Shown here: in pieces, positions 1-44,570 of the stretch
How the letters are laid out: every line of letters begins with the position of its first letter
Numbering within the stretch: the first letter of the stretch is position 1
IMG/VR virus record: IMGVR_UViG_2877973648_000004
DNA: 44,570 nucleotides
Reading direction: 5' to 3' (one strand)
Origin: a virus
Taxonomy: Duplodnaviria > Heunggongvirae > Uroviricota > Caudoviricetes
Notes under the pieces: model-generated
What the model was told of the DNA's origin: nothing
Databases searched by the model: none
Seen by the model: the letters and a program-made list of their open reading frames with translations, nothing else
Translations under genes and position numbers: made by a program

Positions 1-549
1 TCAGCTAGCTGGAAACTTTTTATACAGAGTTGAGAGCCCTACTCCATACGTTTTTGATACGCTTTGTCGTGATTCACCGGTTGCCATCCGCTCCCCCATT
101 TCCCGCCATTGCTCATCCGTGAACTTAGGCCTGCGACCACCAACTCGCCCTTTTGCCCTGGCTACGGCCAGCCCTGCTAAGGTACGTTCGCTATTAAGAT
201 CAGATTCATATTGTGCTGCGGAAAGGATGTTACGAAAGTTATAGCGGCCGCTGGCTGTTTTGAGATCCACGCCATCGGTAATACTGCGGAAGTTGATACC
301 CTTTTCCTGTAACTGCTGGAACATCAACAGCGCATGCAGAACGTTGCGGCCTATCCTGTCCAGCTTCCAGACCACCAGTTCATCCCCCGGCTGCATAGTG
401 GCGATGAGCCGTTTTAGAACCGGCCGATTCGATTTCCTCCCGCTGGCATGCTCTTCAAAAATTTTCTCACAACCCGCTGACTTGAGCGCCGTTAGTTGCA
501 ATTCAGTGTCCTGGTGGTTTGTTGATACTCGGGCATAACCGTAAATCAT
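1..549 (-). CDS. Serine-recombinase DNA invertase (Hin/Gin/Pin family)
   Basis: N-terminus MIYGYARVSTNHQ with catalytic-Ser context, resolvase/invertase-like length (182 aa), AGGAGA RBS before ATG at 549; sits beside an invertible tail-fibre segment. Confidence 0.88.
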   Translation of the reverse strand: MIYGYARVSTNHQDTELQLTALKSAGCEKIFEEHASGRKSNRPVLKRLIATMQPGDELVVWKLDRIGRNVLHALLMFQQLQEKGINFRSITDGVDLKTASGRYNFRNILSAAQYESDLNSERTLAGLAVARAKGRVGGRRPKFTDEQWREMGERMATGESRQSVSKTYGVGLSTLYKKFPAS

Positions 550-601
550 GGGATTTCTCCTGTTATAAAAACAGGAGAAACGGCGAAGCATCACCAGATT
601 T

Positions 602-955
602 TTGATGGTTATAAAAAAGGTTGGTTTGGGAGAAGCGGCAAAACGGAATGTGGGAACAGGGGAAAATCAGATACCTGATATGTCAGCTTATTCATCAGGA
701 TCTGGCTGGCAAAAATTGCCTGATGGTTCAATTGAACAGTGGGGAAGAATTAATTTCCCGACTAACGCCGCGGCGGTATCTACAAATGTGACTTTCACCA
801 TTCCTTTTACGCAGGAGCCAGACGTAGTGATTGTATATGACGGCGGTTTTGGTGGTGGGAATATGTGGGGCGCAACTAACTGGACGAAAACAGGTTTCGT
901 TGCTCATTGTAACTATGGCTTTGAAGGTGGAGCCTTCTACGCGAAAGGGCGTTAA
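602..955 (+). CDS. Alternative tail-fibre C-terminal cassette (silent in this orientation; fuses to the constant fibre N-terminus after inversion)
   Basis: ORF begins inside the crossover site (KKVGLGEAAK) with a TTG pseudo-start; Gly-rich fibre-tip-like sequence; followed by its own assembly gene. Confidence 0.55.
   Translation: MMVIKKVGLGEAAKRNVGTGENQIPDMSAYSSGSGWQKLPDGSIEQWGRINFPTNAAAVSTNVTFTIPFTQEPDVVIVYDGGFGGGNMWGATNWTKTGFVAHCNYGFEGGAFYAKGR
609..634. repeat. Invertase crossover site (left), hix/gix-like 26-bp imperfect palindrome
   Basis: ttataaaaaaggttggtttgggagaa; reverse complement shares the half-site TTCTCCCAAACC and central AA with the site at 2456-2481. Confidence 0.65.
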
Positions 956-957
956 TT

Positions 958-1398
958 ATGAAATATTTGTATGTTGATAATCTGGCGTACCCTTATGCCC
1001 TCCAGTCTGTTTACGCTGCAAAAGGCCAATGGCCAGAAGGAAAAGGCGTAGACATAGACGAAGCTATTTTCAGGGAATATTTCCATGACACGCCGCCCGA
1101 AGGTAAGCGCAGAATTACCGCAGGCGACGGAATGCCAGCTTGGGCAGATGTTCCTCCACCAACACGTGAAGAACAAATTGCATCAGCCGAAACTAAAAAG
1201 CAGCAATTGATTAACCAGGCCAACGAATACATCAACAGTAAACAATGGCCAGGTAAAGCATCAATTGGTCGTCTGAAAGGTGAGGAACTGGTGCAATATA
1301 ATTTGTGGCTGGATTATCTGGACGCACTGGAACTGGTCGATACTTCCGGTGCGCCAGATATTGAATGGCCTACGCCTCCGGCAGTTCAGGCCAGATGA
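958..1398 (+). CDS. Tail fibre assembly protein (alternative-orientation copy)
   Basis: ATG at 958 directly after the alternative fibre cassette; C-terminal DIEWPTPP motif paralogous to the minus-strand assembly protein (DVIWPELP). Confidence 0.65.
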   Translation: MKYLYVDNLAYPYALQSVYAAKGQWPEGKGVDIDEAIFREYFHDTPPEGKRRITAGDGMPAWADVPPPTREEQIASAETKKQQLINQANEYINSKQWPGKASIGRLKGEELVQYNLWLDYLDALELVDTSGAPDIEWPTPPAVQAR

Positions 1399-1972
1399 CG
1401 TCCGGCGCTGTGCTGGTATCTGTTGCCGTCACCGCGTCAATGTAATCCAGCACAGCGTTAAGTCGGGTGTTTTCTGGCTGCGTCAGCTTCCGCCCGGCCT
1501 GTAATTTCAGTTGAATCAGACTGATGGAAGCCATTGCTGCATTAATCAGTGACTGGCGCTGTGCTTCTGCCGCGTCTAGTGCGGCGCTATGCTGTGCCTC
1601 GGTATCCGTCACCCATTTCTCACCATCCCATTTATCGTATGGCGTTAATGGGGCGATAGTGGTTGTATTTTCAGGGTAATCACCCGGAACTGTGATTTCT
1701 TTGGTATCTCCCGTTTCGGTACTATAGACAACTTCACCGCGATGGTCTGGCACATATTCCCATGAATTTAAATCTACAGAGCGACAGATTGCATAACCAG
1801 CTTTATGTGTACCTGGTGCATCCAGACAGGAACATGCCGGGATACCGACGCCGACAGCGAGATATTCAGTTGATGTAGAAATATATTCCCGCGTTTCGCC
1901 ATCATAGTTATGTACGATGATTTCCCCATCATTTAAAGCGTAACCGTCTTTTCCCAAAATAGCCTGTTCCAT
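1370..1972 (-). CDS. Tail fibre assembly protein (expressed orientation)
   Basis: Immediately downstream of the fibre gene; shares the C-terminal motif with the 958-1398 product; 3' ends of the two assembly genes overlap convergently. Confidence 0.7.
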   Translation of the reverse strand: MEQAILGKDGYALNDGEIIVHNYDGETREYISTSTEYLAVGVGIPACSCLDAPGTHKAGYAICRSVDLNSWEYVPDHRGEVVYSTETGDTKEITVPGDYPENTTTIAPLTPYDKWDGEKWVTDTEAQHSAALDAAEAQRQSLINAAMASISLIQLKLQAGRKLTQPENTRLNAVLDYIDAVTATDTSTAPDVIWPELPEA

Positions 1973-2752
1973 TTATGCAGCCCTCACAATGTAGTTAAAT
2001 GCAATGTTTCGCGGGCTACCATCACCGGCGCCGGAACTGACATGATTGGTTCTATCCATTCGTTTACTGTCATTTGTTGTTCCACTCCCATCCTTCCACG
2101 AATACAATAACCCGCCATCGCCAATGCTCAACTGCACCGCAAATACGGATGAACCGGATGAATAAACATCTCCAGCCATGAGTGGGTTCCCTGTCCATCC
2201 ATGCATTTCATGGTTATGTTCAAGGATAGATGCTGCCTGACTTGAAAGCAGCAGTCTCGCGGAATCAACACCTCGCCCATCATCCCACCCGCGAATAAAC
2301 TCACCGCGCAAATCCGGTAATTTTAACTTTGGGTAAGCCTTTGCCAGTTTTGGGTACTCTTCGGCAGAAAAAGGTGCACCGTTGCATTTCAGCCAGCCTG
2401 TTGGTGGTGTGGCTGAAGGCCACGGAACAGGCACACCAACGGGTAACGCTGAGCCTTCTCCCAAACCAAGGTTTGTGAGAGCCGTAGAAATCGCCGCTGC
2501 ACCATCTGATTTGATATCGGCAAATGGGTTTGCACGGCTCAGTGTGAGTTTTTGAATGGCTTTTAAAACCTGAGTCATATCGTTAATGTCGAGCGCCAAT
2601 CCTGCTGACTCTACGATATGCGCTAACTCTTCCTGCATGGCATTAAACGCTGCTGCCCGCAGCCTCGTTGCGGCAATACCACCAGCAACACTTCCATCAG
2701 TATATTTGCCATCCTGCGTTGCAGTGGCTTCGACTTGCCCGATTCGGAGCAT
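1973..2752 (-). CDS. Tail fibre protein (constant N-terminus ~2470-2752 plus invertible variable C-terminus)
   Basis: Position after baseplate genes; crossover site falls ~95 codons into the ORF; Gly/Ser-rich C-terminal region. Confidence 0.75.
   Translation of the reverse strand: MLRIGQVEATATQDGKYTDGSVAGGIAATRLRAAAFNAMQEELAHIVESAGLALDINDMTQVLKAIQKLTLSRANPFADIKSDGAAAISTALTNLGLGEGSALPVGVPVPWPSATPPTGWLKCNGAPFSAEEYPKLAKAYPKLKLPDLRGEFIRGWDDGRGVDSARLLLSSQAASILEHNHEMHGWTGNPLMAGDVYSSGSSVFAVQLSIGDGGLLYSWKDGSGTTNDSKRMDRTNHVSSGAGDGSPRNIAFNYIVRAA
2456..2481. repeat. Invertase crossover site (right), inverted relative to 609-634
   Basis: ttctcccaaaccaaggtttgtgagag; lies inside the tail-fibre ORF at the GLGE codons, which are also encoded at the left site. 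Confidence 0.65.
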
Positions 2753-2803
2753 AGTTAATCCTCACTTAGTGTTAAGCGATAAAATCAGAGGGGGAAATAT
2801 CAG

Positions 2804-3397
2804 TTATGAATAATTGAAAATGATGTTCAGATGGGATGGGGCAATTTTGTTGATTGAACACTCCAGTTGTTTATTGCCCCACGATGCGAGCGGATCTCCG
2901 CAGTAGGACGCGCCAGCAAGCGAATACTTGATCGTTGTTTGTGGCGCATTTATCCGCCAGGTAAATGGCCACTCGTCACCGTTAAGCGCATCACCGCATA
3001 CTGACATGCCACTCATAGCGGGCCGGAACTGTGTGATAGTGATGGTATAACCAAGAGCTGCAGCCACCCGGATGTAATAATCGCGGTTCAGGCCGCCGGT
3101 GCTGATTAACTTTGCCACCACGGCGCGCTGGCGATCGCTGACGCCACCGGATTCACCAATCGCACAATCATCTGGTAACCCCAGAGAGCTTTCCCATTCT
3201 GACAACATTACCGTCGCTGTAGGGGGAAAAGCACCAGTAATCAGGCTTTGCGCATCGTTGTCAGAACGCTGAAACGCGCTGCCCAGTGCCCGTAATACCG
3301 CAGCCTGTACCGTTTTTTGCGATCTGGGCCACGCCCTGCCCGTCGGCAGCAACGCGCCAAGCGCACCGGCATAATCATTTTTTGAAAAGAGGCTCAT
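2804..3397 (-). CDS. Baseplate/tail protein (Mu gp48-like)
   Basis: 197 aa, between baseplate J-like gene and fibre gene; start overlaps the upstream gene end. Confidence 0.5.
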   Translation of the reverse strand: MSLFSKNDYAGALGALLPTGRAWPRSQKTVQAAVLRALGSAFQRSDNDAQSLITGAFPPTATVMLSEWESSLGLPDDCAIGESGGVSDRQRAVVAKLISTGGLNRDYYIRVAAALGYTITITQFRPAMSGMSVCGDALNGDEWPFTWRINAPQTTIKYSLAGASYCGDPLASWGNKQLECSINKIAPSHLNIIFNYS

Positions 3398-4536
3398 ACA
3401 AAATTCACCCCGCCAAGCACCGGAATTTCGCCAACAGCAAAGGTGATATTGGCCATCGGAGAGTTAAGGATATAGCCCGTCGTGCCACTAACACCGCCGA
3501 TACTCCCGTTAATATCAGAGAGGTAAACTTTCCCGGAACCATCAGGGTTAGCCTCATCAAAAAACAGCGCCGTCAGCGCGTCTTTTATACCCTGAACTGT
3601 GGTGCTGTCGGCATTTTTGATACCAGAGATTTCAATATTGATGACTTTCTTGATCGGGGAACATACGAAAACAATGGCAGTGTCTGTCTGCTGCGGATAG
3701 ATGTGGTCGGCGACAGCGAGCTGGTCTCCGGTGGCTTTAACAGCCCCCCAGTCCTCAAGTTGGGATATTCCATCGGTACCGACCGGAAACCCACCATTGA
3801 CATTCCGATCACACATGATATACACGCCAACGGTCCCGGCCCCGTTCAGACGCCGCTTTACCCACGCGCGGGTGACGCCCGAAACCTCAAGCGCCCATTT
3901 TTTATAATCGGCGTCGCTTCCACCCTGAGGCGGATTCTGCCATGCCAGCAAGCCACGACTGCGAAAGTCCTCTTCCGTTTCAATATCGGCTCCGCCGGTC
4001 GCAGCGGACAGTAACGTTACCTGTGGATCCACGCCAGCAATATTCGCGTCCAGGGTCATTATGGTCCCGGCATCAGCGTTACCGCGCGCGCCTCCACCCG
4101 TTACATCACTGGTAATATCCGGCAGGATGGCCGTCACCGCGACGATACCAAATCCATCTGCCTGAATTTTAAGATCTGCATCCGTCCGGTACTGGTATCC
4201 GTCCCCGCGGTTAATGATCGAGCCAACAGGGATAATACTGTCAACACTGCCACTAGCCTGTACCGCAGGCGACTTCGCCGCTGCAGCTGGTTTTCTGAAT
4301 ACCTGCTTAAGGGCCATCCACCCGGCGAGATACTCATCGGTAGAGGTAAACGGGTTTGTCTGCAGGGCAATATAGTCAAGGTAGGCGTAATGCAGATGCC
4401 CCATCCCCGCATCCATGTCAGCCAGTACCTTCAGGTTCGCGAAGCGCAGGAGCGCACCAACATCCTCAAGCTCCGCCTGCATAAATTTCCGGTTTCCGTC
4501 GCGGAGTTCGCTCAGCGTCGGTCGTTTAAACGGCAT
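3394..4536 (-). CDS. Baseplate J-like protein (Mu gp47-like)
   Basis: About 380 aa from internal ATG (MPFKRPTLSEL) immediately after the preceding stop; position in a Mu-like baseplate module. Confidence 0.65.
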   Translation of the reverse strand: MPFKRPTLSELRDGNRKFMQAELEDVGALLRFANLKVLADMDAGMGHLHYAYLDYIALQTNPFTSTDEYLAGWMALKQVFRKPAAAAKSPAVQASGSVDSIIPVGSIINRGDGYQYRTDADLKIQADGFGIVAVTAILPDITSDVTGGGARGNADAGTIMTLDANIAGVDPQVTLLSAATGGADIETEEDFRSRGLLAWQNPPQGGSDADYKKWALEVSGVTRAWVKRRLNGAGTVGVYIMCDRNVNGGFPVGTDGISQLEDWGAVKATGDQLAVADHIYPQQTDTAIVFVCSPIKKVINIEISGIKNADSTTVQGIKDALTALFFDEANPDGSGKVYLSDINGSIGGVSGTTGYILNSPMANITFAVGEIPVLGGVNFV

Positions 4537-4537
4537 A

Positions 4538-4975
4538 TTAACGTTGCTCCCATATCCAGTAAAACCTGAATTCCTGCCAGTCCTTCCCCGGTGCCTGATA
4601 GCGGATAATGAGATTGAGCCGGTCAGGCAGGACGATCCTGGCAACAGGAATAACCTCGCTGACAACGCCATCAACCTTTAACCAGTTGAGCGCTTCACTC
4701 GAGTATTCCTCCGCTTTTTTTGCTACATCCGGGGTCAGTTTTTTCCGCCGTAGCAGCCACAACCGGGATCCCAGTTGGGATTCCTCCCCAGAATCCCCCC
4801 ACCAGCCGCGGCGATCGCTATCCTCATAATCATCGTCAGCGCGCGCCAGCCTGTCAGTAAACAGGCTGTCCAGTATTGCAGTCTGTAAATCGTTCCCCGT
4901 GGTGAGTTCGCCCAGCCCTTTCTGCCAGTCAGCAAACATCTCATCCACATTCCAGAATGAAGCGATGTCACTCAT
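4538..4975 (-). CDS. Baseplate protein (Mu gp46 / gp25-like)
   Basis: 145 aa, between spike and J-like genes with overlapping stop/start. Confidence 0.55.
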   Translation of the reverse strand: MSDIASFWNVDEMFADWQKGLGELTTGNDLQTAILDSLFTDRLARADDDYEDSDRRGWWGDSGEESQLGSRLWLLRRKKLTPDVAKKAEEYSSEALNWLKVDGVVSEVIPVARIVLPDRLNLIIRYQAPGKDWQEFRFYWIWEQR

Positions 4976-5556
4976 GTCACCTGATCCTCTGTTTTTTGGC
5001 TGCGGATATTGTCATTGCCACTCTGGGCATTTTTAACCACATGATCATGGTCATTATGTGCATCCCGCAGCTCTTTCAGTGTTCGGGTATTGGTTTCACA
5101 GTTATCAACAATGTCACCCGTGCACCTCAGGATCGGGGTATTTGCAAGAATCCCCTGGCTGGCATTGATGGTCACGTTAGTGGCGTTATTGACCTCAACA
5201 TTCTGGCCCTTTGCATCCAGGAAGATCCCCTTCTCCGTCAGGAGAATATTAAGACCCCACTGGTTATACATGACCGTTTCGCCCGCTTTCAGGCCTGTAT
5301 GACGGAACCCCTGATGGTTGGACGCAATTACCACCGCGCTGGAACGATCACCGCCAATAAAAGCCAGAACCACGTCAGTCCCTGACGGCAGGCCGGATGA
5401 AAAACCAAATTCAGCCATCCGCGGTGCGCTGGCCACCTCCAGCGGAGTCTGGTACTGGATTGACTGCACCACCCCACCATCTTTCATAGCCGTGATCCGG
5501 CCAATCCCCAGCATGCCGGCGATCCTGGTCGCTGCATGTTTAAATAGTTGCTTCAT
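4972..5556 (-). CDS. Baseplate assembly/spike protein (gpV / Mu gp45-like)
   Basis: 194 aa, Gly-rich N-terminal beta region, conserved position after the hub gene. Confidence 0.6.
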   Translation of the reverse strand: MKQLFKHAATRIAGMLGIGRITAMKDGGVVQSIQYQTPLEVASAPRMAEFGFSSGLPSGTDVVLAFIGGDRSSAVVIASNHQGFRHTGLKAGETVMYNQWGLNILLTEKGIFLDAKGQNVEVNNATNVTINASQGILANTPILRCTGDIVDNCETNTRTLKELRDAHNDHDHVVKNAQSGNDNIRSQKTEDQVT

Positions 5557-6638
5557 GTATTGAATCCCGCCAGGTTCTGGTAGAAGGCATATGGCTGAAC
5601 GGCGAATGCTTCAGGCGGCATCAGCGTCATGCGTGCATGGGTGCCGTAGTCATCGCGCATATAGGTGACTTCTGCCAGTAGCAATTCAGTCTCCGGCAAC
5701 CGTAAGGTGGGAAGATCAACGGGGATCAATGTGTTTGGTTCCCACAGTTTCCCGTCTTTATCCCGCCAGGAATCGATGGTTACCGAGAGCTGTTTTGAAC
5801 GTCCGTACCGCCGGTTCATTTCCCAGTCGATCGCACTTTGTGCCTGTTGAGTAGCCATCAGGGTACTTTCCACAATCGATATATGTTTTCGGTACCGCAT
5901 ACGGGCGGCCTCCGGATCTCTCGCCGTTGCCAGAGTCACAGCGTCATAGGCCGTATCAGGCGAATACCCTGCAATTGGAGAAACGCTCATTGATACACCG
6001 ACATAATCTGAAAACCTGTCAGCCATCGATTTGCGGTAGTATGCCTGCTCGACATTTACCCCTTCGGCTATCCCACTCGCCGCACGACGTGTTCCCACCC
6101 GGGTCAGTAACAGGTTTCCATCGGGCTGATCGTAGTAAAGCAGAGCAGACCATCTGGCCACCCGATCGATGACTTCTTGCGGAGACTCACCCCAGTTCAG
6201 AGTGAACTGGGGTACCTTCACAAGTTCATCAACATCCGTGGTTACGGTGATGCCGTAGTAGGATGCCAGGCGAGAAGCAATTTCAAGTGCATTACTGGCA
6301 TTAATGACGTTGTTAGGCCACTCAGCTGAGCAATCCACCAGGTCCTGACATTTGCTCCTGCCCGTGGCGCGGACCTCATGGCGGGAGCGCGATAGTGCGG
6401 GTTCCCAGTCATCAACATATCCCGTCAGTGTCAGATCATCTCCGATACGAACTTCACAAGACATTCCCTCTTCAACGAGTTGACGATCTTCGTTGCCAGG
6501 GAAGTAATCCATTAGCCCAAGATCGAAATCAGAGGGAAAACGCTCAATACCCCGCGTTACCCGGACAGAATCCCACCCCTCGATGATTTTGCCGTCGACC
6601 GTCAAAGAAACAACATCCAGATCGCTGTCTGCATTCAT
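5553..6638 (-). CDS. Baseplate hub protein (Mu gp44 / P2 gpD-like)
   Basis: 361 aa; synteny between DNA-circulation-like and spike genes. Confidence 0.6.
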   Translation of the reverse strand: MNADSDLDVVSLTVDGKIIEGWDSVRVTRGIERFPSDFDLGLMDYFPGNEDRQLVEEGMSCEVRIGDDLTLTGYVDDWEPALSRSRHEVRATGRSKCQDLVDCSAEWPNNVINASNALEIASRLASYYGITVTTDVDELVKVPQFTLNWGESPQEVIDRVARWSALLYYDQPDGNLLLTRVGTRRAASGIAEGVNVEQAYYRKSMADRFSDYVGVSMSVSPIAGYSPDTAYDAVTLATARDPEAARMRYRKHISIVESTLMATQQAQSAIDWEMNRRYGRSKQLSVTIDSWRDKDGKLWEPNTLIPVDLPTLRLPETELLLAEVTYMRDDYGTHARMTLMPPEAFAVQPYAFYQNLAGFNT

Positions 6639-28792: not shown

Positions 28793-29896
28793 TCAAACCA
28801 GTTGAAGTAGATTTCTTGGATTTGACAGTGGGCGGTTTACCGAGAATAACTCCCTAACCAACTCCTGGCTTAAACCAGTTTTCATGAGAATGCTCATCCA
28901 TGTTGCATCATCCAGCATTTCAATCGCCTCAGCTAACATACTCGGTTCTTCCGGGCGAATAAATTCATCTCCTGGTTCAACTTTCGTATATCCTTTAGAG
29001 TTCAAATGCATATAACCTGTTCTTGCCTGCTCCTGCGTCAGCAGGCCTAGAGTTGTTGCTCGGTAAATGCACATTTTAAGACTAATCTTCCACCGAAGCT
29101 TAAACTCAACTAGGGCGTTCCAATCGAACTGTCTTCCTCGTATACGGGGAAACTCTTTAATAAAGGACAATCGAGGAACTAGCAACGCGCTTGAAAAACG
29201 ATCCGCTTGCGATTCAGTCACTTTATCTCCTGTGGTTATACCTTCGTGCATAACCAAGTGCCCCAATTCGTGACCTAAATCTGATCGGAATCTGCATATA
29301 CTCTTTTTGACGTTATTTCGGATGATTACTGGCCTGTTGTTATGAACAGTAAAAGCATCTACGCGGTCATCCACTCCTGTCACATGAGCAACAATAACCC
29401 CCAAACTCTCAGCCAGTTTGACCATTGAGGATATAGGTCCCAGCCCTAAGTTCCATGCTCTTCTGCAGTCTTCCGCTACACGTTCAATATCATTTGGAGT
29501 CAGCAATTCAGCACCGGGGTGCTCAGGTATGAAAACATCAGGAAACTCGATTTCTCCCTCAACGGCAGAGATTATAATGTTAAGAATCTCCGCCCTTGCC
29601 AGAACACTATTGGTTAATGTTTGGGTTCTCGATTTTTTACTCCGAAAATGGCAAACATCGCTTTCTAAAGCATATTTTCGTTCAGTAAATAGGAAATCAG
29701 ATTTAATCATCAGCGCAGATGAGATTAATTCTAACAACTGTTCTGATGGTTTAAACCCTTTTTCCAATTTGCTAACGAATTGTTTTGTTTTACCAATTTT
29801 CTCCGCTAACTCTTCGCAGGAGAGCCCAACAGCCATTCTGGCTAATTTGAGCTTATCCCCACGATACTCAGCAAAGTCATTCACTTGATGTTCCAT
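28793..29896 (-). CDS. Fused HTH (XRE-type) / ImmA-IrrE-like zinc metallopeptidase
   Basis: N-terminal HTH-like LSCEELAEKIGKTKQFVSKLEKG; HEXXH-type motif HELGHLVMH in the C-terminal half; AT-rich. Confidence 0.6.
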   Translation of the reverse strand: MEHQVNDFAEYRGDKLKLARMAVGLSCEELAEKIGKTKQFVSKLEKGFKPSEQLLELISSALMIKSDFLFTERKYALESDVCHFRSKKSRTQTLTNSVLARAEILNIIISAVEGEIEFPDVFIPEHPGAELLTPNDIERVAEDCRRAWNLGLGPISSMVKLAESLGVIVAHVTGVDDRVDAFTVHNNRPVIIRNNVKKSICRFRSDLGHELGHLVMHEGITTGDKVTESQADRFSSALLVPRLSFIKEFPRIRGRQFDWNALVEFKLRWKISLKMCIYRATTLGLLTQEQARTGYMHLNSKGYTKVEPGDEFIRPEEPSMLAEAIEMLDDATWMSILMKTGLSQELVRELFSVNRPLSNPRNLLQLV

Positions 29897-38688: not shown

Positions 38689-38826
38689 CGTAAAACCCGC
38701 GCAAGGCGGGGTCTACGTCCGGTGCCACCGACCAAAGTTACACCGGAATTTATACCAAACCAAAAAACATCCAATGGGCGCTATCTCTGGCCCGGGGATT
38801 CTAACACTCAAAAAAGAGGATCTCAC

Positions 38827-41736
38827 ATGGAATTTTTCCATCTGATAAAAGCCAGTCAGAAGTCTGGCAAGAAAGATGCAGTGATTTGGTTCACTGCGAA
38901 AAGTGTAGCGCGCGCCAATCTCCAACTCGATGTGGCACTGGAAGAAGCCGGAATTGAAGAAACTGGCCGCGGTAAAGATTATGCCAAACCAATCCGCACC
39001 GATTTCCCGGTATATGACGACCTGCCGGAAGAAGGCGCAGTGGATTACACCTGGTGCAAACGCTACGAACTGCAGAACGATGACCGCACCTGGCTGCCAA
39101 AAGTCACAGCTGAAAACTCTGACGAGAAAACGGCTCAGACCGTTGATAGTCACATAACTACTGAGTCAACGCTGCCAGAAACCGCTGGCATCACGCTGGA
39201 CGAACACGACGACGACTCAACCCTCTACCCGGTAGTGCAGATGCCGTTTCGTAAGCAACTGCTTTCCCAGTTCACCGCCGACGAACTGCGCCACCACGTA
39301 ACCCGCGAAGAGTACGAAGCTATCGGCGCGCTGGAGATGGACACTGATAACAGTTACGTCCAGAACTTGCTGTTAGCTGCTGAGAACTGCCCGGACGTGA
39401 AGGGTTACGACACCAAAGACCTGTGGCGCTACACCGATGCCATTCGCAAAGTGTTCAGCCAGGACAAGCGTCACGAACTCGCGCTGGTACTCCGTTTCAC
39501 CAGAATGTGGGCGGCGACTGATTACATTGACCGTGGCATCCTGGCGCGTGAATGGGCTGCCGGTAATCACATCAGTAGTGTTCAGCGTACTGATTCCGGA
39601 ACCAATGCCAACGGCGGTTACGTCACTGACCGTGGACCTGATGCATACCATACCCTTGACACTCTCGATTTAGAGATTGCATGTGCCCTTCTGCCTATGG
39701 ACTTCAACCACTTCGAGATCCCGGGCAGCATTCTTCGTCGCGCTAAAGAAATCGTGACCAAAAAAGAAGAACCGTGGAAATCATGGAGCAGCATTCTGCG
39801 CAATCAACCCGGCGTTCTTGGCGTTAACCGCACAGCTATTTTTAACCTGATACGTATCGCGCCGGAAAATATTCATCTAACTCCTGTCGCTCACCTGGAG
39901 TTTGTTAACCGGACCATGACTGCTGCGTTTAATGCTGCTGTTGAGTTATTGCCATTGCATGAAGCTGAGCCCGCAACACAGGAAATTCCCCAACCTGAAA
40001 GTAAGGAGTCTCCACGCAAACCCTTCTGCACTCACGAAGAGAACCTGCAACGCGTACGTGAAGAAGAAGCACGCCGCCGCGCAGAGGAAGCGACAGCACA
40101 ACCACATAAAGCCGAACAAGAACTGGTTAAAAATGTCGGCAACGGAATATTCGATGTTACGGCTTTACTGCAGAACTCAGCAACTCATGGCACGAAACAG
40201 GCTACGGAAACCACCAGCAATGTGCAGGTTCAAGAAACTGTCAGTGATGAAAAAAATGTTGGTAATGAAATGCAGTCAGGCGAAAGCAGTCTGGAAACTG
40301 GTGAAGAGTCACATCCCGGCCAGCAGGCCGATGTAAACCAAAATACGGAATCTGTCGCTCAAAATAGCGATTCTGTAAACCAGACTGAACCAGTTTTGGC
40401 ACACGTCGAGCCAGAGGCGCAATCTGACGAACAAGCTGTTTTTTACCCCGATTACTTCGAGCCTGGGCGCTATGAAGGTCTGCCGAACGAGGTTTACCAC
40501 GCTGCCAACGGCATCAGTTCCACCCAGGTAAAAGATGCGCGCGTTTCGCTGATGTACTTCAATGCGCGCCACGTTGAGAAAACCATCGTCAAAGAGCGCT
40601 CCTCAGTGCTGGACATGGGAAACCTGGTACATGCGCTGGCGTTGCAGCCAGAACAGCTCGATGAAGAATTTAGCGTTGAACCCGTAATTCCGGAAGGTGC
40701 ATTTACCACCACGGCAACGATCCGCGCGTTTATTGATGAGTACAACGCCAGCCTGCCAGCGCAACTGAGCGCAGACGATATCAAAGCTTTGCTGGATGAA
40801 TACAACGCCACCCTGCCAGCGCTGGTGCCGCTGGGCGCTAGCCTGGATGAAACGGCGCAGAACTATATGGCGCTGCCAGCTGAATTCCAACGTATCGATG
40901 CAGATCAGAAGAAGACAGCAACAGCAATGAAGGCGTGCATCAAAGAGTACAACGCCACCCTGCCAGCGCAGATTAAAACCAGCGGCAGCCGCGACGCACT
41001 ACTCGAACAACTTGCGATTATCAATCCTGACCTGGTCGCGCAGGAAGCTCAGAAGCTGCAACCGCTGAAAGTCTCTGGCACGAAGGCCGATCTGATTCAG
41101 GCCGTAAAGGCAGTCAAACCAGATGCAGTGTTCGCCGACGAGCTGCTCGATGCGTGGCGCAACAACCCGGAAGGGAAAGTGCTGGTTACCCACCAGCAAC
41201 TTGCCACCGCGCAGGCAATTCAGTCAGCACTGCTCTCGCACCCGACCGCAGGCATGCTGCTAACCCACCCGAGCCGCGCCGTTGAGGTGAGCTACTTTGG
41301 CTTTGACGAGGAGACGGGACTGGAAGTTCGTGTGCGCCCTGACCTTGAGATCGACCTAGACGGCGTGCGTATCGGTGCTGACCTGAAAACCATCAGCATG
41401 TGGAATGTTAAGCAGGAAAGCCTGCGCGCCAGGCTACACCGGGAAATTATTGAACGTGATTATCACCTGAGCGCGGCTATGTACTGCGAAACCGCAGCGC
41501 TGGATCAGTTCTTCTGGATTTTCGTCAACAAAGACGAGAACTACCACTGGATCGCCATCATCGAGGCATCCGCTGAACTACTGGAGCTGGGTATGCTCGA
41601 GTACCGCAAAGCGATGCGCAATATCGCAACCGGATTCGACACAGGTGAATGGCCAGCGCCAATCACTGCTGACTACACCGACGAACTGAACGACTTCGAC
41701 CTGCGCCGCCTTGAAGCGCTGCGTACTCAGGCATAA
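38827..41736 (+). CDS. recE: RecE-like exonuclease VIII (putative)
   Basis: About 969 aa from AAGAGGA-ATG (MEFFHLIKAS), directly upstream of a RecT-like gene as in Rac; nuclease-like C-terminal region; internal 27-bp repeats. Confidence 0.55.
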   Translation: MEFFHLIKASQKSGKKDAVIWFTAKSVARANLQLDVALEEAGIEETGRGKDYAKPIRTDFPVYDDLPEEGAVDYTWCKRYELQNDDRTWLPKVTAENSDEKTAQTVDSHITTESTLPETAGITLDEHDDDSTLYPVVQMPFRKQLLSQFTADELRHHVTREEYEAIGALEMDTDNSYVQNLLLAAENCPDVKGYDTKDLWRYTDAIRKVFSQDKRHELALVLRFTRMWAATDYIDRGILAREWAAGNHISSVQRTDSGTNANGGYVTDRGPDAYHTLDTLDLEIACALLPMDFNHFEIPGSILRRAKEIVTKKEEPWKSWSSILRNQPGVLGVNRTAIFNLIRIAPENIHLTPVAHLEFVNRTMTAAFNAAVELLPLHEAEPATQEIPQPESKESPRKPFCTHEENLQRVREEEARRRAEEATAQPHKAEQELVKNVGNGIFDVTALLQNSATHGTKQATETTSNVQVQETVSDEKNVGNEMQSGESSLETGEESHPGQQADVNQNTESVAQNSDSVNQTEPVLAHVEPEAQSDEQAVFYPDYFEPGRYEGLPNEVYHAANGISSTQVKDARVSLMYFNARHVEKTIVKERSSVLDMGNLVHALALQPEQLDEEFSVEPVIPEGAFTTTATIRAFIDEYNASLPAQLSADDIKALLDEYNATLPALVPLGASLDETAQNYMALPAEFQRIDADQKKTATAMKACIKEYNATLPAQIKTSGSRDALLEQLAIINPDLVAQEAQKLQPLKVSGTKADLIQAVKAVKPDAVFADELLDAWRNNPEGKVLVTHQQLATAQAIQSALLSHPTAGMLLTHPSRAVEVSYFGFDEETGLEVRVRPDLEIDLDGVRIGADLKTISMWNVKQESLRARLHREIIERDYHLSAAMYCETAALDQFFWIFVNKDENYHWIAIIEASAELLELGMLEYRKAMRNIATGFDTGEWPAPITADYTDELNDFDLRRLEALRTQA

Positions 41737-43182: not shown

Positions 43183-43380
43183 ATGGATGATATTTTGGTA
43201 ACGTCAGACCTGACCAGTCGCTACAAAATTTCACGCAAAACCCTTTGGTCATGGCAAAGTGCAGACACAATGCCTCGGGGCTTCGTATGCCCGTTCCCAC
43301 CCCCTGACTGGCCCGGCAACCCTAACCGCTGGCGCTCTGAGTCAATCAAAGAGTGGGAGGATAAAAAGAAGATAAATTAA
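43183..43380 (+). CDS. Excisionase-like HTH protein (AlpA/Xis-type, putative)
   Basis: About 65 aa from GGAGAGAG-ATG ([24 protein letters not shown]); convergent with and overlapping the integrase 3' end. Confidence 0.5.
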
Positions 43381-44570
43381 CTGAAGGGCTCTCCGATGAT
43401 CTCTTCAAGATGGCTCTGCCAAACGCGGAGCCAGTGTTTCTGATCATCGATATAGTCATGAAGGTTGTAATGCGCCATAACCCCCACCATCTGATGCCCG
43501 AGCAGCTTTTCAATTACGTGCGGCGGGCAACCTAACTCAGAGAGATTTGTGGCTATCGTCCGCCTCATATCATGAAGCGACCACTCTGCCATACCTGTTC
43601 CATTCCAAATAGAACGGGCGTAATTGGATGCCACAGGTGAATGAACGGGCGAATCTTTGATCCCGCCATCAATTTTACGTTGTGAAGTCACCAGGTGATT
43701 GGTGTTTATTTTCTTGAGGTGATTTCTGACCAGGTTAACGGCGGCGTCTGAGAGTCCCCTTCTAATATGTACCCGAGTTTTATAACTGCCCGCAGGCACG
43801 ACCCACTCATTATCATCCAATCGAAACCATGATCTCTCACTAAGTCGAATCTCAGCCGTACGGCATCCGGTAAGCATAATAAATTTCACCAGGAAAACGG
43901 ACTCTATCGACATATGGCTTTTCAACCACTGATAGATTTTGCGCAGATCGTCATCGTCCATCCTGCGAGTTCTCTTTTTAGGCTTTTGCCCGACATCAGA
44001 TGGCAGTAATCCCTCGAGTGGGTTTGAGGCGATCACACTTCTGTTAACGCAGAACCTAAACGCCCGTTTGCACAGCGAAAGCATGTAATGAGCCATCACC
44101 CTGCTTTCTATAGAATCGAAGACGTTGATCCAGTGCATTTTCGCTGTGTTATCGACTTTGACATTCTTCATCGGTTCGGCGATATGTTTCTCAAACACCT
44201 GGCGATAGTAATCGACTTTAACTAGCCCGTTAGCGATACAGTGCCTTTCAATCCAGTAATTGAACGCTTCGGCAACGGACATCGCTTCCTGTCGGGTCTG
44301 CTTATCCAGCTTCACCTGCTCTCGCGGATCCAGTCCCTCAGTTAACCAGTTTCTGAATTGTTGGCGACGCTCTCTTGCCTGGGTGATACTCATTGCAGGA
44401 TAATCACCAACATTGAGTTTTACCGCTTTACCGGCCCAGCGATACCGATAGAAAAATGATATTTTTCCGGCCTGGCTGATTCTGGCGTTGAGCCCGTGCG
44501 AATCAGAAATAATCTCGATATCATCTCTTTTCTTGCCGAGCGCCTTCCTGAGCTTTGTGTCGGTGATCAT
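43377..44570 (-). CDS. int: Tyrosine integrase (P4-like family)
   Basis: 397 aa; N-terminal DTKLRKA...ISDSHGL...YRYRW and C-terminal HDMRRT...LLGH...Y catalytic-region motifs; ATG is the last 3 bases of the window. Confidence 0.85.

Follow-up and report, generated by a model that had tools for sequence, protein, structure and literature searches.

A probable site-specific invertible tail-fibre switch adjoining a PinL-clade invertase in an Escherichia coli prophage

The stretch of DNA analysed here (the window, 44,570 nucleotides) appears to be a complete E. coli prophage of a myovirus with lambdoid regulation, with genes for terminase, portal, capsid, sheath, baseplate, Q antiterminator, replication and integrase. 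At one end of it lie a tail-fibre gene, a second fibre C-terminus on the opposite strand, a chaperone gene for each and a gene for a serine invertase (Table 1). The two genes upstream of the fibre encode baseplate proteins, with matches to the Pfam families Phage_Mu_Gp48 (1.2e-32) and Baseplate_J (8.1e-57) respectively, and the gene order here agrees with that of e14 ymfQ-stfP. For none of the six proteins at the locus did an NCBIfam family reach its cut-off, no close relative of the structural module was found among deposited phage genomes, and promoter and terminator scans gave scores no better than those of shuffled sequence.

Table 1. Features of the tail-fibre locus (positions are those of the window)
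Feature	Position	Strand	Basis
Serine DNA invertase, 182 aa, phi80 "PinL" clade; ATG 549-547, stop 3-1	1..549	-	Pfam, Gin alignment
Candidate proximal Fis-type site within the invertase gene (gene nt 22-36), GTATCAACAAACCAC	514..528	-	Codon-aligned comparison; Fis role putative
Hairpin, perfect 11-bp stem, 3' arm with the invertase Shine-Dalgarno AGGAG	554..580	-	Inverted-repeat scan, RNA fold
Silent alternative fibre C-terminus with gp53-like_C domain, predicted to join the constant part upon inversion	605..955	+	Pfam PF21882, 1.4e-08
Site L, invertase-proximal crossover, TTCTCCCAAACC AA CCTTTTTTATAA, core 621-622	609..634	-	Inverted repeat; natural-flip breakpoint 621-635
Invertible segment, 1845 bp between the two 2-bp cores	623..2467	.	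Block inversion in E. coli AREA_C483
Chaperone paired with the silent C-terminus, C-terminal half TfaP-like	958..1398	+	Pfam Caudo_TAP, 4.6e-30
Chaperone of the expressed orientation, TfaE-like tail-fibre assembly	1370..1972	-	Pfam Caudo_TAP, 5.7e-31
Expressed tail fibre, 259 aa; constant head residues 1-95 (2468-2752), variable part with tail-collar domain (1973-2467)	1973..2752	-	Pfam
Site R, crossover within the fibre gene, TTCTCCCAAACC AA GGTTTGTGAGAG, core 2468-2469	2456..2481	+	Inverted repeat; natural-flip breakpoint 2455-2469
Baseplate genes in the fibre operon, upstream: YmfQ/Mu gp48-like (2804-3397) and baseplate J/gp47-like (3394-4530)	2804..4530	-	Pfam

The two crossover sites form the longest inverted repeat within positions 1-3400 and have a perfect 15-bp repeat in common (621-635 against 2455-2469), so the repeats described in an earlier note, which was made from the letters alone, do align when they are read again. 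Both sites have a 12-2-12 anatomy, lie in inverted orientation and carry an AA core when read from the inner to the outer half; on the plus strand site L reads TTATAAAAAAGG TT GGTTTGGGAGAA. With up to one mismatch allowed, TTCTCCCAAACC is found at just these two places in the 44,570 bases, against an expectation of 0.19, and a count of two was reached in one of 100 shuffles. The note had described both sites as 26-bp imperfect palindromes, and whilst the coordinates and the orientation stand, as does the description of site R (10 of 12 positions symmetric), it does not suit site L, the outer half of which is a poor half-site with 6 of 12 positions symmetric and a start of CCTTT instead of GGTTT. 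Comparison with known invertase sites, which the note had put forward as a check, gave gap-free alignments of sites L and R to Mu/D108 gix, P1 cix and pix. Two quasi half-sites elsewhere in the window (38750-38763 and 38979-38992, with 2 mismatches, in direct orientation and within a RecE-like gene) were treated as chance because there is no second half-site there.

The inner half-site GGTTTGGGAGAA is read on the fibre strand as G-L-G-E, residues 96-99 of the fibre, and the same 12 bases on the plus strand are read as G-L-G-E in the frame of the silent ORF, so that both sites lie within GLGE codons as had been claimed; the 95 residues that precede this motif likewise agree with the claim of a constant part of about that length. 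When the segment was flipped in silico an unbroken 205-aa fusion was obtained, with the second chaperone gene starting 2 nt later, and each tip has its own Caudo_TAP chaperone, which bears out the proposal that inversion would exchange the fibre C-terminus together with its matched chaperone in frame. The collar domain of the expressed fibre occupies residues 106-153 (Pfam Collar, 9.1e-15), and its chaperone is 86.5% identical to e14 TfaE over 200 aa; the chaperone of the silent tip is 69% identical to e14 TfaP over residues 69-146.

Both orientations of the segment are found in nature across genomes and metagenomes, that is, between the strains and samples compared, with breakpoints within 621-635 and 2455-2469. 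The clearest flipped example is E. coli AREA_C483 (L005), which carries a near-identical prophage at the same tonB-yciI site: positions 1-635 are 100% identical to the window and 2455-6000 are 98.8% identical, both flanks being collinear, and 621-2469 is inverted as a block at 97.4% identity. In the annotation of that prophage the flipped fibre is an intact CDS of 205 aa, with the 146-aa chaperone next. Two metagenome contigs (L019 and L021) are also flipped, and the orientation of the window is shared by L001, L006, L018 and others, among them at least six other metagenome contigs. The earlier note held that its proposal would fail if no more than one orientation were ever seen in deep read data; the AREA_C483 prophage and the two contigs show the other one. 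We therefore consider it very probable that positions 1-2752 form, in an E. coli prophage, a tail-fibre switch that inverts by site-specific recombination as the G segment of Mu, the C segment of P1 and the P segment of e14 do.

The note had also called the segment invertase-driven, and the 182-aa protein encoded beside it is indeed a serine invertase with both expected domains (Pfam Resolvase, 3.7e-39, and HTH_7, 1.5e-09), the residues 1-181 of which align end to end and free of gaps with Gin (PDB 3UJ3/4M6F, E 1e-56), the catalytic Ser9 lying in RVSTN. A longer reading from GTG-594 was dropped in favour of ATG-549, which has AGGAG 8 nt upstream and agrees with the RefSeq annotation of the identical protein. 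The hairpin ahead of the gene corresponds to the "IR3" annotation in the phi80 record, similar hairpins precede other invertases, and the RNA fold of 535-640 on the minus strand has z = -5.4. The protein is 99.5% identical to the invertase of phage HK225 and the gene is 93.7% identical to phi80 pinL DNA, whereas identity to PinE, Gin and Cin is 52-55% (55% to e14 PinE). Judged from these protein alignments the enzyme is not a close orthologue of PinE, Gin or Cin and is to be placed in a separate clade; PinE, Gin, Cin and prophage invertases have helix-E and Fis-contact residues in common that it does not have. An N-terminal invertase module shared with L002-L004 was considered, as blastn matches begin at position 345 inside the gene, and was rejected: the proteins differ throughout, so that 345 is no mosaic joint and the alignment merely ran on.

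The e14 P segment, with pinE, stfP/stfE, tfaP/tfaE and pix, is the closest model for this arrangement, having the same order of ymfQ, fibre head, first tip, its tfa, convergent second tfa and second tip, and invertase, with an NLGLGE crossover after a head of about 95-100 aa and a 29-nt overlap between the convergent tfa genes, all as in the window. The published e14 crossover repeat is TTGGTTTGGGAGAAGG, and the inner half-site and core of the window, TTCTCCCAAACC AA, are identical to it (PMC12529663) and to both pix sites of K-12 e14; a pix-type crossover TTGGTTTGGGAGAAG(G) is present at both ends of the segment, with 15 of 16 and 16 of 16 matches to the published repeat. For e14, coexisting orientations have been shown by PCR, whole-genome sequencing and qPCR (PMC4272514, PMC12529663). 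The two elements differ in their fibre tips (the variable part of the expressed fibre is 51% identical to StfE, and identity to StfP is 28%) and in their state, e14 being a 15-kb remnant at icd whereas the window is an apparently complete 44-kb prophage with relatives at tonB-yciI.

In Mu/D108 (Gin, gix) and P1 (Cin, cix), as here, the invertase adjoins the segment from outside and each fibre tip has its own chaperone (S/U against S'/U'), and the Mu proteins gp47 and gp48 are resembled by the products of the upstream baseplate genes. The crossovers of D108 (NVGLQE) and P1 (YLGLRE) are in frame and of the same L-G-L-x-E kind as in the window, and an in-frame crossover within L-G-L-x-E/D was found in D108/Mu, P1, a P2-like prophage and four other genera. 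The core of sites L and R is cix-like, AA rather than the GA of gix, and the inner half-site differs at 3-4 positions; in Mu/D108, where the crossover falls at residue 171, and in P1 the constant part is far longer, and the D108 segment is about 3 kb against 1845 bp here. A P2-like E. coli prophage (L004) carries the same cassette (about 93% identity to window 345-2480), flanked by the same sites and crossing over in YLGLGE, but with a constant part of about 350 aa against 95 aa and a classical rather than a PinL-type invertase; at a P2-like prophage locus in E. coli inversion has been seen at the population level (PMC4272514). A short constant part and a GLGE crossover are, on the sequences compared, shared within the family and not special to the window. 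The Salmonella H segment (Hin, hix and a Fis enhancer), the system with the best-understood mechanism (PMC3798978, PMC4513852), likewise pairs a small serine invertase with 26-bp sites, yet it flips a promoter and has hin inside the segment, whereas here a coding segment would be flipped from outside. Finally, the siphoviruses phi80, HK225, mEp237 and mEpX1 have the same invertase as the window, together with the hairpin ("IR3") and the proximal site, and the invertase likewise adjoins the phi80-type attachment site at yciI. These phages have a single site and a pseudogene fragment, in contrast to the complete two-site segment of the window, and are therefore unable to invert.

By analogy with these systems, dimers of the invertase would bind both 26-bp sites and make staggered 2-bp cuts at the AA/TT cores, after which one pair of half-sites would rotate through 180 degrees before religation. 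Inverted sites with an asymmetric core would make inversion of the 1845 bp between them the outcome. The late operon, read in the order baseplate J, YmfQ and fibre, would in either orientation provide the promoter, the start codon and the first 95 residues, the last presumably being the part that attaches to the baseplate. The orientation in the window would yield the collar-domain tip with the TfaE-like chaperone and the flipped orientation the gp53-like tip with the TfaP-like chaperone, so that a lysogen population would shed virions of two receptor specificities. The sites, reading frames and gene content, the homology to Gin and to the e14 sites and the two natural orientations are direct observations, whereas the action of the local enzyme, the recombination chemistry, the change of receptor and any Fis control are inferred.

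That the segment inverts need not mean that the neighbouring gene inverts it. Natural flips are no proof of the action of the window invertase, because a segment of this kind can also be flipped in trans by a different Pin-type invertase of that cell (PMC12529663); it is quite unlikely, to our reading, that another resident member of the Pin family (PinE, PinQ or a P2-like Hin/Fin) is the flipping enzyme here and that the local gene is inactive or otherwise used. PinQ does flip the e14 P segment across prophages (PMC12529663), and classical Pin enzymes ought to recognise the sites described here, which match those of e14 exactly over the inner half-site and core; in addition the same invertase stands beside a single remnant site in phi80 and HK225, and the local enzyme does not have the equivalents of Hin Q151, R154 and L155. 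However, it has an intact catalytic domain that can be aligned with Gin over its full length, it belongs to a clade whose members, in at least 120 protein clusters, are conserved at 79% identity or more and do not vary in helix E, and members of that clade adjoin paired inverted sites in other genera. Furthermore, the two flipped examples in which the invertase flank is present (L005 and L021) both carry the invertase of the window type. The local enzyme is probably the one that flips the segment.

It may also be asked whom the switch serves. A role mainly for the lysogenic host, in which a fibre-derived protein made in one orientation masks outer-membrane receptors and blocks superinfection, has a precedent in e14, where the homologous inversion makes StfE2, which blocks adsorption of T2 (PMC12529663), and the silent copy in the window does form a short separate ORF that might start at TTG 602 or ATG 605. 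A promoter-like site was looked for upstream of that ORF, however, and none was found, and unlike e14 the element looks like a complete prophage, for which an ordinary host-range function is therefore available; a mainly host-serving switch seems unlikely, and the two roles can coexist. A third alternative, a frozen relic in which past recombination joined tail-fibre cassettes into a mosaic and the repeats are now inactive, we regard as highly improbable. The same cassette does occur in unrelated phage backgrounds with similarity that stops at the edge of the site, and a decayed version exists in phi80, but none of the five ORFs is broken, each of the two fusions keeps its frame, and near-identical prophages differ by a clean inversion alone with breakpoints in the 15-bp repeat. 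RecA-dependent homologous recombination needs far more than 15 bp.

The part of the locus that departs from the classical systems is the invertase itself. In Hin, Gln151, Arg154 and Leu155 on helix 1 of the DNA-binding domain form the Fis-contact triad, described as "uniquely conserved among DNA invertases", and mutating them nearly abolishes Fis-activated inversion (PMC3798978); helix-E residues Phe105 and Met109, and also His107 and Leu112, lock the inactive dimer (PMC4513852). The window enzyme differs from Hin at all seven positions. Glu, Glu and Arg stand in place of the triad, whereas PinE, Gin, Cin and three prophage invertases have Q, R and L there, and Asn, Ile, Arg and Ala stand at the positions of Phe105, Met109, His107 and Leu112, with Phe106 retained, whereas Gin and Cin keep the F/H/M residues of helix E. 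The helix-E pattern is invariant in 120 members of the PinL clade, which spans Enterobacterales and includes invertases of Erwinia, Morganella and Kluyvera that also adjoin a pair of inverted sites, and the triad varies among the 120 clusters (QRL, ERL, EER, QAL, QKM, LRE and others).

In Hin/Gin/Cin/Pin systems a recombinational enhancer with a proximal and a distal Fis site lies in the 5' part of the invertase gene, and inversion depends on Fis and on negative supercoiling. In the window the candidate proximal site GTATCAACAAACCAC aligns with GT[AG]TCAACAAATGAC of pinE and gin and keeps the G and C at +/-7, positions that are important in Fis sites (PMC4784862). At the distal position (gene nt 71-85) the G...C pair is present in 7 of 7 classical genes, whereas nt 71 is C and not G in 13 of 13 PinL-clade genes, and the clade does not have C at nt 85 throughout, the window having A there. 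Identity at synonymous codons in the 13 PinL-clade genes is 0.56-0.66 over codons 1-24 against 0.43 overall, and there is one such peak of conservation in the clade (codons 1-24) against two in the classical genes, both samples being small. The positions compared follow the Fis sites of hin and gin, and the spacer agrees with the "ATTTA and TAATG" quoted in PMC3798978. We put forward only tentatively that the regulatory apparatus of this widespread, uncharacterised clade has been remodelled in the triad, the helix-E lock and the distal Fis site, which would be absent, and that the clade may invert DNA without a canonical Fis-bound enhancer or through another control element. If this were true, the PinL clade would be the natural counterpart of the laboratory "hyperactive" mutants of Hin and Gin.

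Tail-fibre switches are long familiar from Mu, P1 and e14 and are found routinely in E. coli genomes, so no new principle is seen here; the design of the e14 P segment is old knowledge, to which the window adds another case, and the poorly studied invertase is its sole unusual part. The same cassette occurs between the same sites in e14-like, P2-like and other prophages, and the sites therefore double as joints at which receptor-binding modules are exchanged between unrelated phages. The prophage is also an intact and probably inducible relative of the decayed e14, in which host-range switching and the receptor masking lately proposed for e14 fibre chimeras could be tested with real virions. 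Finally, the departure of the PinL clade from Hin, Gin and Cin at the residues of Fis activation poses a concrete question on the control of serine invertases, one that can be put to the test.

The gene order along the minus strand is baseplate J, the YmfQ/Mu-gp48-like protein, the fibre, its chaperone and, beyond the segment, the recombinase. When read outwards from within the segment, the invertase-proximal crossover site (site L) and the one inside the expressed fibre gene (site R) alike give TTCTCCCAAACC-AA-(outer half), and therefore they are inverted and have a common perfect 15-bp repeat (621-635 against 2455-2469), and no inverted repeat in the first 3.4 kb of the window is longer than this pair. 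The positions and inverted orientation proposed in an earlier note are thus borne out by the plus-strand reading, whereas its description of both sites as palindromes holds for site R (10/12 positions symmetric) but only poorly for site L (6/12). No further copy of the half-site with at most one mismatch was found in the 44.6 kb, against a chance expectation of 0.19.

Coordinates of the crossover sites and neighbouring genes in the window
Feature	Position	Strand	Remark
Serine recombinase, 182 aa	1-549	-	Resolvase and HTH_7 domains; outside segment
Start-less fibre C-terminus	605-955	+	gp53-like domain; within segment
Site L	609-634		plus-strand reading TTATAAAAAAGG TT GGTTTGGGAGAA
Second chaperone	958-1398	+	within segment
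Caudo_TAP chaperone, 200 aa	1370-1972	-	
Fibre, 259 aa	1973-2752	-	tail-collar domain
Site R	2456-2481		plus-strand reading TTCTCCCAAACC AA GGTTTGTGAGAG
YmfQ/Mu-gp48-like protein	2804-3397	-	
Baseplate J	3394-4530	-	

In either fibre frame the inner half-site GGTTTGGGAGAA reads G-L-G-E, as had been claimed, and it is preceded by 95 residues in the expressed fibre, in agreement with the constant head of about that length. When the segment is flipped in silico, a 205-aa fusion stays open and the second chaperone begins 2 bases past its stop, which confirms that the fibre C-terminus and its matched chaperone could be swapped in frame. Two more near-matches to the 14-mer of half-site and core (38750-38763 and 38979-38992, 2 mismatches each, direct orientation) lie 229 bp apart at the start of a RecE-like gene; a second half-site is absent from both and they are therefore probably due to chance. 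The 3' ends of the convergent chaperone genes have 29 nt in common (1370-1398), exactly as in tfaP and tfaE of e14, and the conserved C-terminal motif of the two chaperones, LDY[LI]DA, produces an 18-nt inverted repeat astride the overlap (1308-1325 / 1434-1451).

Both orientations occur in nature, across strains and samples rather than in one culture, which settles the question of whether only one exists. The flipped junction was constructed and searched against 5,426 complete E. coli genomes, giving a full-length match in E. coli AREA_C483, where 1-635 (100%) and 2455-6000 (98.8%) are collinear with the window and 621-2469 is inverted (97.4%); the breakpoints therefore lie within the 15-bp repeat. 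RefSeq annotates the 205-aa fusion and a 146-aa chaperone in this flipped prophage as intact genes. It resides at tonB-yciI, as does the prophage of strain PCP06171, whose segment is oriented as in the window and whose invertase, YmfQ and baseplate-J protein have the same accessions. A metagenome scan with the constant-side site returned 12 contigs, two flipped (L019 and L021) and at least six in the window's orientation; L021 also has the same invertase flank (99.8%), and metagenome contig L018, in the window's orientation, is 99.96% identical to window 1-5329.

The cryptic prophage e14 of K-12 shares this gene order, and its sites, TTCTCCCAAACC AA CGTTTATGAAAA and TTCTCCCAAACC AA GGTTTTCGAGAG, agree fully with the window's in inner half and core. 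The window sites match the published e14 crossover repeat TTGGTTTGGGAGAAGG (PMC12529663) at 15/16 and 16/16 positions, and in e14 both orientations coexist in clonal cultures as seen by sequencing, PCR and qPCR (PMC4272514; PMC12529663). Gap-free alignment was also obtained with gix (D108/Mu) and cix (P1). The crossover is in frame and within the same motif in every system examined, being NVGLQE in D108, YLGLRE in P1, YLGLGE in a P2-like prophage, NLGLGE in e14 and the window, and DLGLGD or YLGLGE in Erwinia, Morganella, Citrobacter and Pseudocitrobacter; the GLGE crossover and short head are thus family traits. The finding is correct, but the system is classical in kind.

A cassette ~93% identical to window 345-2480 is present in e14-like prophages and a P2-like prophage with a 514-aa fibre (L002, L003 and L004), and in every case similarity extends no further than the outer edge of site R; the crossover site is thus also a joint for module exchange between unrelated phages. 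Window 683-1124 is unrelated to 3683-4148 of L001, a relative in the same orientation, though the prophages are otherwise 98-99% identical; the region swapped comprises the distal silent fibre tip and the beginning of its chaperone, so that the silent cassette changes more rapidly than the DNA around it.

The remainder of the window is apparently a complete lambdoid-regulated myovirus prophage, with a Mu-like baseplate, sheath, lambda-type capsid, portal and terminase, together with Q, NinG, an O-like replication protein, RecE/RecT and, at the far end, an integrase. Among 50,697 deposited phage genomes there is no close relative of window 4000-28000 (head, tail and lysis module; at most 6% covered); nevertheless, the same prophage type is found in complete E. 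coli genomes. The regulatory region encodes a 367-aa protein (28793-29896, minus strand) with an N-terminal HTH_3 and an IrrE/ImmA-type M78 peptidase domain in a single polypeptide. Position 1 is exactly the invertase stop codon and the window ends within the integrase gene (43377-44570). In relatives (L001, L005 and L011) the invertase end lies directly against yciI/tonB, where phi80 and HK225 have their attachment site, and this invertase-att end is thus common to the myovirus prophage and those siphoviruses.

On the observed sites, reading frames, homology and natural flips, the standard reading of an invertible segment is the best supported. Dimers of the invertase would bind both sites and make 2-bp staggered cuts at the AA/TT cores, followed by subunit rotation by 180 degrees and religation, with the asymmetry of the core enforcing inversion. 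The late operon would provide promoter, start codon and 95-residue head, one orientation giving a collar-type tip with a TfaE-like chaperone and the other a gp53-like tip with a TfaP-like chaperone, with a predicted change of receptor.

The acting enzyme is presumably the local one, although flipping may be done in trans by another resident Pin enzyme, as is documented for PinQ on the e14 segment (PMC12529663); conservation and genomic context of the PinL clade, the phi80 pinL-type invertases that include this enzyme, argue that the local one works. Besides host-range switching, the main benefit may be host defence via receptor masking, as claimed for e14 StfE2 (PMC12529663), but the window's prophage, unlike the e14 remnant, has genes for a full virion. 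That the arrangement may be a frozen relic is contradicted by the clean inversions between near-identical prophages.

Against the Gin crystal structures the invertase of this invertible segment aligns without gaps, with the catalytic serine in place, yet it shares just 52-56% identity with PinE, Gin, Cin and P2-type enzymes. Much closer are the invertase of phage HK225 (99.5% protein identity) and phi80 pinL (93.7% DNA identity); next to this invertase those siphoviruses retain only one site and a pseudogene fragment. The PinL clade comprises at least 120 protein clusters (at least 79% identity) across Enterobacterales, and in Erwinia, Morganella and Kluyvera two inverted sites lie beside its gene. 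The invertase of phage mEpX1 (L012 5001-5549) is a mosaic, classical Pin/Gin type in residues 1-65 and identical to the PinL type in 66-183, with the joint immediately past a conserved VVWKLDR motif. Shortly before the ATG of the window's invertase gene (549), positions 554-580 (minus strand) form a perfect 11-bp stem, TTTCTCCTGTT / AACAGGAGAAA, with a 5-nt loop; its 3' arm includes the Shine-Dalgarno sequence, and the phi80 annotation names it only 'IR3'. Hairpins of other sequence but the same position and Shine-Dalgarno pairing precede e14 pinE and two prophage invertases, which suggests translational throttling of invertase synthesis.

Phe105 and Met109 keep the Hin dimer locked in its inactive state, and about half of the substitutions at these residues are active without Fis, F105N surpassing the wild type in inversion rate in vivo (PMC4513852). 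The window's invertase has Asn and Ile there, both invariant in 120/120 PinL-clade clusters, helix E reading N-F-R-x-I-x-x-A-x-x-Y against F-F-H-x-M-x-x-L-x-x-M. The Fis contact patch of Hin (Gln151, Arg154, Leu155), 'uniquely conserved' among invertases (PMC3798978), is Glu, Glu and Arg in the window and variable within the clade. A proximal Fis-type 15-mer is retained in the 5' part of the invertase gene. The candidate distal Fis position (gene nt 71-85) is bounded by G...C in 7/7 classical genes; nt 71 is C, not G, in 13/13 PinL-clade genes, nt 85 is A in the window with C not uniform across the clade, and the G...C core is absent from these 13 genes. Synonymous-codon identity has, in small samples, one peak in the PinL clade (codons 1-24) and two in classical genes. 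The altered Fis sites and synonymous peaks are only a lead, because the samples are small and the placement of Fis sites in these genes is in part our assumption. It is conceivable, if rather doubtful, that the PinL clade has a non-canonical, possibly Fis-independent, control; of the whole system, only this divergent invertase clade might be unexpected to a specialist.
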